Of a stretch of 41,298 nucleotides of DNA, positions 595 to 20,573 are shown piece after piece. The DNA comes from an uncultured Candidatus Saccharibacteria bacterium (GTDB lineage Bacteria; Patescibacteriota; Minisyncoccia; Phycocordibacterales; WO2-35-19). The stretch is from NCBI GenBank assembly GCA_964455485.1, contig CAYVXT010000003.1, forward strand, positions 1-41,298. Direction: 5' to 3'. Made by a program: the position numbers and the translations under genes. The notes under the pieces are model-generated. The model made no database searches, had not been told where the DNA came from, and was given only the letters and a program-made list of their open reading frames with translations. Positions within the stretch are counted from its first letter, which is position 1. Every line of letters begins with the position of its first letter.

Positions 595-740
595 TGGGGG
601 CAGGAGAGAAGTCTTGATCCTTACAGGATCTGTACACCTTTCGTATCGTACTCACCTTCGCCATGCTCAGGTTTTGTGCGATTTACTCAAGGTCTTCAAG
701 TCCTCCCACGCAAGCAAAGCAGTTTGCTTGCTCTGCCCAC
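595..740 (-). ncRNA. TEC-A: short tRNA-end-capped structured element downstream of tRNA-Leu(TAG)
   Basis: Read on the minus strand it runs GTGGGCAGAG, hairpin GCAAGCAAA-CTGC-TTTGCTTGC, GGGAGGACTTGAAG ... CTCTCCTGCCCCCA. The 3' end copies 11 nt of the tRNA 3' end (598-608 = 780-790). GAGGACTTGAA (reverse complement of 695-705) is the exact reverse complement of the tRNA T-loop plus 3' T-stem, TTCAAGTCCTC. Confidence 0.6.
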
Positions 741-778
741 AAAATAAAACACCAGCAAAAATGCTGGGTTTTATTTTG
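741..778 (-). terminator. Hairpin plus T-run after tRNA-Leu(TAG)
   Basis: On the minus strand the sequence is AAAATAAAACCCAGCA-TTTTT-TGCTGGTGTTTTATTTT. Confidence 0.6.
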
Positions 779-974: not shown

Positions 975-999
975 CTAAGATAATAACATAATTACCTTG

Positions 1000-1140
1000 T
1001 GCCTGGGGTGGGACTCGGTCACAACTCTTTTGTTTTCCAAAAGGTTTCGACCCCGCCTCGCCTGTTTCGTTTTGCTCAACATCGCTCCGGCTTTCTCGTC
1101 CCACTCGCAAAGCAGAGCAGTCTGCTTTGCTCACAGACAT
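1000..1140 (-). ncRNA. TEC-B: short tRNA-end-capped structured element downstream of tRNA-Leu(TAA)
   Basis: On the minus strand it runs ATGTCTGTGA, hairpin GCAAAGCAG-ACTGCT-CTGCTTTGC, GAGTGGGACGAGAA ... GGCGAGGCGGGGTCG, a hairpin, then GTGACCGAGTCCCACCCCAGGCA. A 21-nt exact repeat of the tRNA 3' end and flank is present (997-1017 = 1160-1180). Confidence 0.6.
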
Positions 1141-1161
1141 AAAATTCGCATTGCGAATTTT
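1141..1161 (-). terminator. Hairpin after tRNA-Leu(TAA)
   Basis: AAAATTCGCA-TT-GCGAATTTT palindrome immediately 3' of the tRNA. Confidence 0.55.
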
Positions 1162-8536: not shown

Positions 8537-8542
8537 CCCAGG

Positions 8543-8566
8543 AAAAACTGCTGCAAAGCAGTTTTT
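8543..8566 (+). terminator. Hairpin plus T-run after tRNA-Tyr
   Basis: AAAAACTGC-TGCAAA-GCAGTTTTTT. Confidence 0.6.
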
Positions 8567-8575
8567 TCTTACCTT

Positions 8576-8811
8576 TGCTCCGGGAGGAAAAGCGTGGGAC
8601 GCTTTTCCGTCAGGATTCGAACGACGGAGAGGGACCCGCTTTAGCAAAAGCGGGAGCGAGTCGGTGCCCAGACCAAAAAAGTTTTGACGAAAACTTTTTG
8701 AGTCGAGGGTGAGCTTGGGGTGGGACCCAAGCGCAAGACTTATTGAGACTGAACAAAGTGAGGTCCAATAAGTAGACAGCTTCTGTAAGAAGAAATTCCT
8801 GCCCGGCGCAC
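8576..8811 (+). ncRNA. TEC-Tyr-L: long tRNA-end-capped structured RNA (group-I-intron-like core?)
   Basis: 5' TGCTCCGGG pairs with 3' CCCGGCGCA. CAGGATTCGAAC (8611-8622) is the reverse complement of GTTCGAATCCTG in tRNA-Tyr. Three hairpins have compensated stems relative to the 39.1-kb copy. The last 15 nt (8797-8811) are identical to tRNA-Tyr 8523-8537. Confidence 0.65.
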
Positions 8812-8850
8812 AGGAAAAAATCGCATTGGCGGTTTTTCTTGTGCGCCGGG
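8802..8850 (+). repeat. Long inverted repeat using the duplicated tRNA-Tyr acceptor strand
   Basis: CCCGGCGCACAGGAAAAAATCGC-ATTG-GCGGTTTTTCTTGTGCGCCGGG. Confidence 0.6.
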
Positions 8851-8927
8851 CGAGTAGCTTCGATGATCAAATCGAAGCGTTACATAGGATTCGAAAGGTG
8901 GAAGAAATTTTTCAGCAGAAAAATTTC
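8848..8927 (+). ncRNA. TEC-2: 3'-truncated short element
   Basis: Hairpin GCTTCGAT-GATCAA-ATCGAAGC, then ATAGGATTCGAAAGGTGG, then hairpin AAATTTTTC-AGCA-GAAAAATTT. This matches the layout of TEC-Asn-S (38160-38291) but lacks the 3' tRNA-like end. Confidence 0.45.
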
Positions 8928-19229: not shown

Positions 19230-19296
19230 GTTAAATCAAAAACCAATTAAATCAAAATCATTGATTTTAAGGTGTTTTTCATTATAATGAGAAACA

Positions 19297-19367
19297 TGCC
19301 GGAGTGGATAAAAAGCAAACTGCTTTGCTTTTTATCCGAGCGTAGCGAGGTGGCCGACACTCTGGCA
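19297..19367 (+). ncRNA. TEC-F: minimal 71-nt element upstream of tRNA-Leu(CAA)
   Basis: TGCCGGAGTGG copies the tRNA 5' end (the 12-nt repeat 19296-19307 = 19400-19411). It is followed by hairpin AAAAAGCAAA-CTGC-TTTGCTTTTT, then CCGAGCGTAGCGAGGTGGCCGA, then CACTCTGGCA, which is complementary to the 5' copy. Confidence 0.5.
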
Positions 19368-19401
19368 TTATAGTAAAAATACTATAGTATATTTTTACAA
19401 T

Positions 19402-19482
19402 GCCGGAGTGGCGGAATGGTAGACGCGCACGACTCAAAATCGTGTCTCGCAAGGGGTGAGAGTTCAAGTCTCTCCTCCGGCA
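19402..19482 (+). tRNA. tRNA-Leu (anticodon CAA)
   Basis: Acceptor GCCGGAG/CTCCGGC plus A, anticodon loop CTCAAAA, long variable arm, T-arm GAGAG-TTCAAGT-CTCTC. Confidence 0.9.
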
Positions 19483-19568
19483 CAGCATAAACTTTTACAC
19501 CAAACCCACCTTGAAATTTGGGTGTTAGGAGCTATAATTTAGCCACCAGTCTTCATGTGTATACCATT

Positions 19569-20573
19569 ATGAATACCTCAAATTTTTATCAAAATTCAAT
19601 ATTTTGGGTTGAAGTAGACAAAATAAAACCAAACCCATTTCAGCCAAGGCGTGAATTTGACGAAGAAGCTCTTCGAGCTCTATCTGAGTCTATAAAGCAG
19701 TACGGAGTGCTTCAGGCACTTGTGGTAACGAGGAAGGAAGTGGTGAAGGAAGATGGTTTAGGTGTTGAGTATGAACTAATTGCCGGAGAGAGAAGGTTGA
19801 GAGCATCAAAACTAGCAGGACTTCAGCAAGTGCCAGTAATCATACGAACTAACGAAGAAAATAAAGTGCAAGATGATTTGATGAAGCTAGAGCTTGCGAT
19901 CATTGAAAATGTACAAAGAGAAGATTTGAACCCAGTAGAGCGGGCTAAAGCTTTCAAAAAACTTGCTGACCAATTTGGTTTTAAACATCACGAAATTGCT
20001 CAAAAGATAGGTAAAAGCCGTGTTTATGTGACTAACACTATGCGTATTTTGGATTTGCCAGATGAAATGCTAATTGCACTTTCTGAGGGTAAGATAAACG
20101 AAGGTCATACGAGGCCTCTGCTCATGTTGATTGATAGACCAGAAGAGCAAAAAGTACTTTTCCAAGACATTATTTTACGAAGGATGAATGTACGCGATGC
20201 AGAACAGGCTGCTCGAAAGATAGCGATCGAAAGAGTGCGTAAATTTGATGCAGCACTTGATCCAGAAATTTCAGCTCTTGAAGAAAAGTTTTCAGAAACT
20301 CTTGGTACTAAAGTGAGGATTGAAAAGAAAACAGAGAATTTTGGGAAGCTTACTATAGAATTTTTCTCTAATGATGATTTGGAAAGTATTTTGAAGATGA
20401 TCCAAAATCAAAATAGCAAAACCCAAACAATAAATGATGAAAAAGGGGAGATGGTGGATGACAGAACGCCTGAGCAAGTAAAGATCGCAGAAAATACTCC
20501 TATTCCTACTGTTGCAGAAATTGCAAAAGAGCCCGAGGAAGATTTGTATTCCATTCACAACTTCTCAATATAA
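19569..20573 (+). CDS. parB: ParB/Spo0J partition protein
   Basis: Contains PNPFQPRREFDEEAL and LIAGERRLRASKLAG (ParB box) plus an HTH region. Start set at MNTSNFYQ. Confidence 0.9.
   Translation: MNTSNFYQNSIFWVEVDKIKPNPFQPRREFDEEALRALSESIKQYGVLQALVVTRKEVVKEDGLGVEYELIAGERRLRASKLAGLQQVPVIIRTNEENKVQDDLMKLELAIIENVQREDLNPVERAKAFKKLADQFGFKHHEIAQKIGKSRVYVTNTMRILDLPDEMLIALSEGKINEGHTRPLLMLIDRPEEQKVLFQDIILRRMNVRDAEQAARKIAIERVRKFDAALDPEISALEEKFSETLGTKVRIEKKTENFGKLTIEFFSNDDLESILKMIQNQNSKTQTINDEKGEMVDDRTPEQVKIAENTPIPTVAEIAKEPEEDLYSIHNFSI

Follow-up and report, generated by a model that had tools for sequence, protein, structure and literature searches.

A 71-nt unit upstream of tRNA-Leu(CAA) belongs to a non-coding hairpin family of Patescibacteria whose direct and inverted gene-end copies suggest a new miniature mobile element

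Introduction

To our knowledge tRNA genes are the classic landing sites of integrases, always entered via their 3' part and always by elements with the enzyme gene on board. Integron attC sites are non-coding imperfect palindromes that undergo recombination as folded single strands, crossing over at the hairpin base; their stems vary around conserved features, their recombinase acts in trans, and they are themselves targeted by elements of the IS1111 family. In the vibriophage CTX-phi, which has no integrase, two inversely oriented dif-like sites 90 bp apart fold in the single-stranded genome into a dif-like phage attachment site (attP), at which the host XerCD carries out one strand exchange that is completed by replication, giving prophages in tandem arrays (PMC4246890). 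Here we describe a small non-coding unit on the 5' side of the tRNA-Leu(CAA) gene in a 41,298-nt contig of an uncultured Candidatus Saccharibacteria bacterium (CAYVXT010000003.1, positions 1 to 41,298, forward strand; the whole of this stretch is called the window), and the family to which it belongs, here named TEC, in which direct and inverted copies of a gene end suggest a new miniature mobile element.

TEC units resemble the CTX-phi type of IMEX (an integrative mobile element that exploits Xer) in having no recombinase gene, an inverted pair of target-like sequences with a short spacer, tandem arrays, an element-side copy that restores the target, and the integrated order direct copy, spacer, inverted copy, body, direct copy. 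At tRNA-Leu(CAA), too, there are inverted target-like sites that can fold into a target-mimicking duplex. Unlike CTX-phi, a 7-kb phage directed to dif, the TEC units are non-coding, 100-300 nt long, and directed to the ends of tRNA, tmRNA or rpsI genes, using both 3' and 5' ends; their inverted arm bears a conserved side hairpin, and they are known from sequence alone. With the islands, prophages and derivatives resembling cis-mobilisable elements (CIMEs) at tRNA and tmRNA genes they share the direct repeat of the gene end, the gene-restoring copy brought by the element, repeat boundaries in the T-loop, the use of tmRNA as a target, and tandem insertion, but unlike tyrosine-integrase islands they have neither integrase nor cargo and contain an internal inverted copy of the target and a conserved structured body. 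As in the attL/attR scars of such islands, an exact 12-nt repeat of the tRNA end flanks the insert studied here; no tyrosine or serine integrase, or remnant of one, lies in or beside this 104-nt insert (Pfam, 30 window proteins), and the 3' part of the gene, which is targeted by its 3'-side relatives, is not the part targeted by this unit. As far as we know, 5'-end (D-loop) insertions that bring their own -10 and leader have not been described for integrase-borne islands. Integron attC sites are comparable in their palindromes, single-strand folding, recombinase in trans and IS1111-family visitors; unlike TEC units they neither mimic nor duplicate a target, have no link to tRNA, and need IntI and attI, neither of which is seen here. 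Finally, the repetitive extragenic palindromes (REPs), with the bacterial interspersed mosaic elements (BIMEs) and REP doublets forming hairpins (REPINs), are likewise short, intergenic, hairpin-forming and abundant and serve as landing sites for the IS110/IS1111 family (PMC12288879; PMC11208160), but REPs neither include duplicates of the ends of adjacent genes nor show a link to tRNA termini.

Results

The window was initially annotated from its letters alone as having a minimal unit on the 5' side of tRNA-Leu(CAA), and all features of that description are present base for base. The unit (19296-19368, plus strand, called the 71-nt unit) opens with ATGCCGGAGTGG at 19296-19307, which is 100% identical to 19400-19411. 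ARAGORN and Rfam both place tRNA-Leu(CAA) at 19402-19483, so that the repeat spans -2 to +10 of the tRNA and its proximal copy is continuous with the functional gene (19400-19483, plus strand). The chance expectation for an exact 12-nt repeat 104 nt apart is about 1e-5, and the repeat is therefore not a chance one. Overlapping the distal copy is the family hairpin (19306-19337, plus strand, core AAGCAAACTGCTTTGCTT), the CTGC loop of which is closed by a perfect 14-bp stem, longer than first annotated (GGATAAAAAGCAAA at 19306-19319 and TTTGCTTTTTATCC at 19324-19337). The motif GAGCGTAGCGAGGTGG follows at 19338-19353 (plus strand) and has no second occurrence in the window with 3 mismatches allowed; what is conserved across the family is not this exact 16-mer but the mini-hairpin GAGC-N3-GCGA, here GAGC-GTA-GCGA followed by GGTGG, a shortened version of what in larger units is the GGAG-hairpin-CGAGGYGGGGTCG module, with counterparts GAGCAAAGCGAGG in L098, GAGCACAGCGAGG in L147 and GAGCGATAGCGAG in L142 (L numbers denote loci fetched from other contigs). 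In the last segment, CCGACACTCTGGCAT (19354-19368, plus strand), the tRNA 5' end is repeated in inverted form, as the reverse complement of positions -2 to +13.

The annotated pairing of TGCCGGAGTG with CACTCTGGCA holds over 10 bp including one G-T pair, and in the predicted fold CCGACACTCTGGCAT pairs with the distal copy over 10-11 bp, again with one G-T. Folded alone, the 71-mer reaches -30 kcal/mol (z = -4.0; 0 of 200 shuffles as stable), as one closing stem, one long hairpin and the mini-hairpin. The inverted arm is also complementary, with 2 mismatches, to -2 to +13 of the intact tRNA, which is 3 nt past the boundary of the direct repeat, and can alternatively pair with the real tRNA 5' end (19354-19368 with 19400-19414) across a 31-nt spacer, giving a single-stranded DNA fold of -20.7 kcal/mol (z = -7.3). 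That spacer (19369-19399, plus strand) is AT-rich, forms a hairpin of its own, is homologous to the spacer of L031, and holds a diverged second copy of the -10 and leader (CATTATAGTAAAAA, compared with CATTATAATGAGAA at 19280-19293). The order of parts is thus direct copy, body, inverted copy, spacer, gene. We read the distal direct copy as the displaced original 5' end, which an 8-nt deletion between TGG repeats (GAGTGG / CGGAATGG) has probably cut from about 20 to 12 nt; such a deletion would account for a distal copy that stops at G10 next to an inverted arm that still matches positions 11-13. A sigma-70-type promoter, TTGATT-16 nt-TATAAT (19261-19288, plus strand, 10/12 consensus matches), stops 7 nt short of the unit, and between unit and tRNA no terminator is predicted. 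The unit has no coding capacity; it would be made as a stretch of the tRNA leader transcript, from which RNase P presumably removes it.

Presence of the unit varies among relatives. At the parB-linked locus 45 orthologous tRNA-Leu(CAA) genes were recovered, 46 with the window, and the 5' unit is found in five (the window, L018, L031, L032 and L038) and absent from about 41, including the closest relatives, in which ParB is 83-88% identical. This is an insertion/deletion polymorphism. In these closest relatives the promoter TTGATT-N17-TATATT directly precedes the tRNA, followed in the empty sites L001 and L013 by N9, and the promoter that stands before the unit in the window is of the same type as this native one. 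The promoter-leader-5'-end segment is thus present twice in the window locus, as part of a presence/absence polymorphism. Comparison of orthologous loci had been proposed at the outset as a check, and it brought out the polymorphism but did not fix the exact junctions, as the filled and empty genomes have only 60-88% ParB identity.

Several other features of this locus were recorded. In most of L001-L048 tRNA-Leu(CAA) lies between a DUF1653 gene and parB, on the strand opposite parB; tRNA, promoter and unit in the window (19230-19570) are inverted relative to most relatives and lie on the parB strand. Six loci (L002, L006, L010, L016, L024 and L029) have another small GC-rich hairpin repeat, of the GTCCGCC...GGCGGGAC type, between tRNA-Leu and parB, at the place of the unit. 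In L001-L046 the promoter of tRNA-Leu beside parB has a conserved DnaA-box-like TATCCAC(C/T) between its -35 and -10, in the intergenic region of the two genes, and such a sequence occurs in the window at 19303-19311; these sequences may mark proximity to oriC. A DnaA-box reading of GTGGATAA at the hairpin foot was rejected, since its positions covary as a stem.

The unit is one of many. A search of metagenome contigs with the 18-mer hairpin core AAGCAAACTGCTTTGCTT gave at least 127 matches at at least 120 loci, and the family so defined, TEC, has direct and inverted copies of the adjacent gene end, the CAAACTGCTTTG hairpin and the GAGC-N3-GCGA motif, all of which the unit possesses. Among the matches listed, 78 of 127 lie within 300 nt of a tRNA gene, a zone holding 11% of all bases at the loci (binomial 2e-42), and together they cover 26 isoacceptors; 59 of these 78 are downstream of the tRNA and 11 upstream on the same strand, and the remaining 8 are on the opposite strand. 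Six more of the listed matches follow tmRNA genes, and protein genes, rpsI among them, have a unit at the 3' end in some cases. At the 244 tRNAs of all fetched loci there is a 3' repeat of at least 12 nt in 65 cases and a genuine 5' repeat in about 25, with direct repeats of 11-38 nt across the family. The proposal that the family can cap either terminus of a tRNA is borne out by these counts, and by its hairpin, GA motif and layout the 71-nt unit is a pared-down member of a genuine family, the smallest one and on the 5' side. This family of non-coding hairpins is widespread in Patescibacteria and apparently undescribed; no prior description was found in the literature searched. A strict regular expression for the GGAG...GTGACC module of the larger units found 13 units only.

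What changes between 5' units is the arms. One and the same core stands before tRNA-Leu, Ser-CGA, Ser-GCT, Glu, Tyr and Met, each time with arms that fit the tRNA beside it; in L098 (tRNA-Ser-CGA) the core ATGAAAAGCAAACTGCTTTGCTTTTCATCCGAGCAAAGCGAGGTGG is nearly identical to that of the window unit and the arms are those of tRNA-Ser. The direct repeats of 5' units end in the D-loop after G18G19, and those of 3' units start in the T-loop. Most upstream units have a distal copy that reaches the D-loop GG and is followed by AT and the hairpin; in the window unit and its three Leu relatives the distal copy stops at G10. The outer-stem pairs of the hairpin covary (A-T, G-C, C-G) in L018, L031 and L032. 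Arm mismatches relative to the repeat comprise 22 G.T, 28 A.C and 50 others, and the extension of the hairpin scores 3 against 3, so that no RNA-type wobble bias is seen in the arms, and for this reason they behave as decaying DNA duplications. As single-stranded DNA the gene-end/inverted-copy pairs fold into forked hairpins with the CTGC hairpin as a side branch (z -6 to -16; -7 to -16 for the 3' units). Tandem arrays occur at tRNA-Tyr and tRNA-Asn in the window and, with five copies, in L145. The latter are five identical 136-nt units (L145:4150-4760; hairpin, arm, GGAG..CGAGTCGGGGTCG module, GTGACC), the arms of which match the tRNA-Asp trailer (CGCAGTTAGGC), and may be a real amplification or an assembly artefact.

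Which of the two direct copies is brought by the element can be read from rpsI, at the 3' end of which units stand in L078 and L073 (L058 and L133 are further examples at ribosomal-protein and other protein genes). In L078 rpsI ends ...CAGTGGTC|GAAGCGCTAGTAA directly at the hairpin, its gene-proximal end being TCGAAGCGCTAG, and after the body, at GTGACC|TAAACGTTAA, stands the displaced copy TCTAAACGTTAA. Both TCGAAGCGCTAG and TCTAAACGTTAA encode S-K-R-stop and differ at synonymous sites. The gene in L073 keeps its own end, TCTAAACGCTAA, and it is inside the unit that TCGAAGCGCTAG recurs. In L078 the element thus supplies the final four codons of rpsI, synonymously recoded; taken together, the two loci indicate that the gene-proximal copy is brought by the element and that the distal copy is the displaced original. 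Such a recoded replacement is a hallmark of att-type site-specific integration.

A ParB query places the window in Candidatus Zambryskibacteria (Patescibacteria/CPR). The window contains seven units, at five of its eight tRNA genes. In the downstream ones the tRNA is followed by a spacer resembling a terminator, then by its own 3' end in reverse complement, a hairpin body and a second direct copy that begins in the T-loop; a hairpin splits the reverse complement exactly at the acceptor/T-stem boundary. Downstream of tRNA-Leu(TAG) is the member first annotated as TEC-A (596-777, minus strand), with an 11-nt direct repeat at 598-608, a terminator-like spacer, inverted arm, CTGC hairpin and a hairpin module with a TGTAA loop; a member downstream of tRNA-Leu(TAA) (997-1161, minus strand) has a 21-nt direct repeat of the tRNA 3' end. 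Two tandem members follow tRNA-Tyr (8541-8925, plus strand), the first at 8541-8811 with its direct repeat at 8797-8811, the second truncated. Of the tRNA-Asn members, the first lies downstream of the gene (38113-38291, plus strand) and has a degenerate distal copy, and the second (39040-39329, plus strand) is 1.2 kb off behind two genes and has an exact 16-nt direct repeat at 39314-39329. Over their 3' ~100 nt the Tyr core (8575-8811) and the Asn core (39090-39329) differ at 4 positions (~96% identity), one of the changes turning a G-C into a G.U pair, while three internal hairpins and the arms are entirely different, a pattern that looks like mosaic recombination or gene conversion between copies in one genome. 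The two small genes that separate the tRNA-Asn units are at 38326-38751 (weak EamA-like match) and 38763-38952, and near-identical TTGACA promoters follow both units, as if the tRNA end and a downstream promoter had been duplicated. The window genes are housekeeping only (IF-2, RbfA, ClpB, MiaA, TopA, DprA, RelA/SpoT, SerRS, Dus and others), and no integrase, transposase or reverse transcriptase turned up among 30 of the encoded proteins scanned against Pfam.

Database searches gave the units no known identity. With Rfam 15, at the gathering score and at an E-value threshold over four regions, only tRNAs and low-scoring chance matches were found, and no unit was matched. A search of viral contigs with the 18-mer returned a single chance match in coding sequence, and blastn of the long core and of the tRNA-Leu(CAA) unit against phage and plasmid collections returned nothing; on these searches a phage or plasmid origin was rejected. 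Guide arrays of the TIGR-Tas or box C/D type were also rejected, as their spacer and repeat geometry does not fit.

A transposon does meet the units elsewhere. In L145 a 1.7-kb element, which encodes a DEDD_Tnp_IS110/Transposase_20 protein, lies between tRNA-Asp and a 28-nt repeat; it is an IS1111-type insertion sequence with a DEDD transposase (L145:4700-6300, minus strand), and with it taken out the sequence is that of an intact small unit. Further copies (P0055, P0039, P0025 and P0070) occur in L172-L177 and L186-L190, and the insertions lie downstream of tRNA-Asp, Tyr, Ser and Ala. The insertion sequence is constant: a few bases in from its ends stand subterminal inverted repeats of 12 bp (CATAGAACCC / GGGTTCTATAG), and the transposase gene is followed by 250 nt of non-coding sequence. 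By definition an IS1111 element has such repeats of 11-13 bp, placed 7 and 3 bp from the ends, and a long non-coding region (PMC11187229). The insertion sequence found here is always inserted at ...ATTCG^A... in the inverted T-arm copy; in L186 it lies within a bare palindrome. The idea that the units are ends or deletion derivatives of the IS110-family element in L145 was discarded on the evidence of the further copies, with subterminal repeats of their own and a fixed ATTCG^A site. From these ends and this constant site we conclude that the units are the target of the IS1111-type element and not its ends, as REP sequences, attC sites and Tn21 ends are targets for its relatives. Homologues of the transposase number more than 160, mostly on contigs of 1.2-2 kb; tblastn of the L145 transposase against the window found nothing. 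Short contigs L174 and L187 join the flanks of two different tRNAs across the insertion sequence and are probably chimeric assemblies.

Discussion

Three features call for a new explanation, namely the inverted target copy, the conserved non-coding body and the missing enzyme gene. The initial annotation had held that simple duplication of a 3'-end att site by an integrase is not sufficient, which is correct in so far as ordinary integrase scars leave these features unexplained. An exclusion of att-type recombination does not follow, because a mirror-image att event would explain the 5' units: these are the mirror image of the 3' units and their repeats end in the D-loop, which would put the crossover in the D-loop and not the T-loop. 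We infer that in 5' units the gene-adjacent copy supplies the -10/leader together with the tRNA 5' end.

Described at the level of the family, TEC units are likely to be non-autonomous insertions with a replacement gene end borne on the element. In Patescibacteria TECs would enter tRNA and tmRNA genes, and now and then ribosomal-protein genes, at their ends, each insertion bringing a replacement copy of the gene end that becomes fused to the gene, which would stay intact. An inverted copy of the same end across a short spacer would form a hairpin reproducing the target duplex. The conserved hairpin body (the CTGC hairpin, the GA mini-hairpin and others) would be carried along and the original gene end displaced beyond it, which would give the order direct, spacer, inverted, body, direct in 3' units and the mirror image in 5' units. 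Unit and spacer at tRNA-Leu(CAA) (19308-19411, ~104 nt) would on this account be a non-coding insertion in the 5' part of the gene. In integration itself the element, folded as single-stranded DNA, may recombine site-specifically with the gene end in the chromosome, with the hairpin as a target-mimicking attP, the crossover at the hairpin base (in the D-loop for 5' units, the T-loop for 3' units) and catalysis by a recombinase acting in trans, probably host-encoded, as XerCD is for CTX-phi. The folded-hairpin attP is the best of several open options for the mechanism. Taken whole, a small non-autonomous insertion that integrates as target-mimicking folded single-stranded DNA with a recombinase in trans is the explanation we favour, tentatively, as close to evenly balanced. 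The presence of dprA in the window makes uptake of single-stranded DNA plausible; tandem units and dprA fit integration as a folded single strand and do not prove it.

A number of observations weigh against this explanation. No recombinase was found, and no circular or single-stranded form is in evidence; nor do we know of a tested enzyme that treats tRNA-gene ends as Xer treats dif. Repeat length varies from 11 to 38 nt, and filled and empty sites come from genomes 60-88% identical in ParB, which leaves the exact junctions unfixed. The repeat of L059 runs 20 nt past the tRNA to the apex of a terminator hairpin, an extension that replication template switching or gene conversion could have produced. 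Conservation of the structured body (~96% over ~100 nt, a G.U change, stem covariation) leaves room for a function at the RNA level, and 8 of the 78 tRNA-linked hairpins among the matches listed lie on the opposite strand. Finally, in L097 positions 23-33 of the tRNA, just outside the repeat, are the complement of the inverted segment, which looks more like a guide than a hairpin arm.

The conserved fold is central to a different explanation, that the units are genes for structured non-coding RNAs which work with the neighbouring tRNA, being co-transcribed with it, closed by a stem in imitation of the acceptor stem, and released by RNase P or RNase Z. Processing control, a decoy role or regulation of the tRNA would be possible functions, and the match to the tRNA end would be functional and not a footprint of insertion. 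It would account for the position of 70 of the 78 listed units on the tRNA's strand, for the promoter directly upstream of the tRNA-Leu(CAA) unit with no terminator before the tRNA, for the stable folds (z -3 to -8), for a closing stem that stays paired while its sequence changes with tRNA identity, for covariation in the hairpin stem, and for the 3' ~100 nt of the two-locus core, in which one of the 4 differences (~96% identity) exchanges G-C for G.U. We nevertheless consider it unlikely, because the units are missing from most orthologous loci including those of the closest relatives, the 3' units stand behind hairpins like intrinsic terminators, and arm mismatches have no wobble bias. Moreover, the rpsI 3' end is also capped, where mimicry of a tRNA is meaningless, and the arm pairs with the gene-proximal and not the distal copy; many copies are also truncated or degenerate (the second Tyr unit and the first Asn unit of the window, L031).

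A less likely alternative again requires no dedicated machinery. The copies would be generated at the palindromes natural to tRNA genes (T-arm, D-arm, terminator), by tandem-inversion duplication or by template switching during replication, and the body would be spread by recombination at the universal T-loop box, possibly with natural transformation. The L059 repeat, which extends from the T-loop exactly to the terminator-hairpin apex with 38/38 nt identical, is what such a process might leave, and the 'terminator' is simply a continuation of the gene-end/inverted-copy palindrome; the mosaic or gene-conversion patterns between units of one genome, the neutral-looking decay of the arms and the dprA gene in the window are also consistent with it. 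It is at odds with a module order and junctions of high regularity, GG|AT being in the D-loop and AGC[hairpin]GCG precisely where acceptor and T-stem meet, with an identical 18-mer at at least 120 loci and 26 isoacceptors, and with the recoded rpsI replacement end, which points to an element travelling as a unit.

Since an IS1111-type element is embedded in units at nine loci (L145, L172-L174, L186-L190), one might suppose instead that the units are its non-autonomous partners, moved in trans by a DEDD transposase with their arms as guides like those of bridge or seek RNAs. Their arms are indeed complementary to the target, that of L097 to the flank just across the insertion point, the mobilisation of a small non-coding module by an IS110-family transposase has a precedent in ISPpu9/ssr9 (PMC12288879), and the GA motifs bring to mind the box C/D-like anchors found in bridge RNAs (PMC12045711). 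Bridge and seek RNAs, like TEC units, are structured non-coding modules with target-complementary segments and reprogrammable specificity. They have, however, 4-14-nt guides in internal loops and are encoded within the insertion sequence beside the DEDD gene, whereas TEC arms are 10-25 nt long and the units carry a copy of the target, no transposase and no subterminal inverted repeats. The insertion sequence for its part is complete, with its own 12-bp subterminal inverted repeats and 250-nt 3' non-coding region, and always lies at ATTCG^A within the inverted T-arm copy, once in a bare palindrome (L186); units and insertion sequence have no end sequences in common, the window has no DEDD gene, and IS110-family insertions do not bring copies of their target. 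The tRNA-Leu(CAA) unit is thus not itself of the IS110/IS1111 type, and a partnership of this kind is improbable. Nor is the unit a miniature inverted-repeat transposable element, as its inverted copy is that of the target and not of the other element end, and the repeat length is variable (11-38 nt).

The remaining suggestion, that the 71-nt unit is a decayed tandem paralogue of tRNA-Leu, is hardly credible and was refuted by the test that the initial annotation had set for itself: although both acceptor-stem strands of tRNA-Leu(CAA) and an A at the discriminator position are kept, ARAGORN and the Rfam tRNA model call only 19402-19483, even at E <= 10, the unit has no D, anticodon or T arm, its interior is a hairpin and GA motif also found at tRNA-Ser, Glu, Tyr, tmRNA and rpsI, and its 3' arm complements the 5' end, 2 nt upstream and positions 8-13 included, and hence is not a tRNA 3' end. 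The original observation therefore stands.

If insertion as a target-mimicking hairpin is correct, genome-reduced Patescibacteria would harbour very many gene-less elements of 100-300 nt that enter either end of a tRNA or tmRNA gene and rebuild it, a new minimal form of site-specific mobile DNA. Much unexplained structured intergenic sequence beside tRNAs would be accounted for, a natural target of a clade of IS1111-type RNA-guided transposases would be identified, and annotators could account for the partial tRNA fragments with which these assemblies are littered. The prediction of a folded-hairpin attP is directly testable. It is possible, if rather doubtful, that the implications go further and that TECs are a new class of gene-less integrating elements, which integrate as folded single-stranded DNA with a hairpin copying the end of an essential gene (tRNA, tmRNA, rpsI) as their attP and hijack a host recombinase, possibly on DNA acquired by transformation. 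Either gene end would be entered and restored, in a strategy like that of IMEX and attC retargeted to tRNA genes and widespread in Patescibacteria.

Two minor observations concern tRNA genes at the fetched loci. Upstream of tRNA-Ser and tRNA-Arg genes in L055, L138 and L072, small open reading frames for GIY-YIG nucleases lie between a partial or disrupted 5' tRNA copy (13-36-nt repeat) and the intact gene, a kind of tRNA-gene insertion different from TECs. Beside some units ARAGORN reports unusual anticodons, namely TTA ('Stop'), tRNA-Ser(ACT) and several tRNA-Ile(TAT) (L171:2358-2431, L190:1272-1359, L080, L107, L146).

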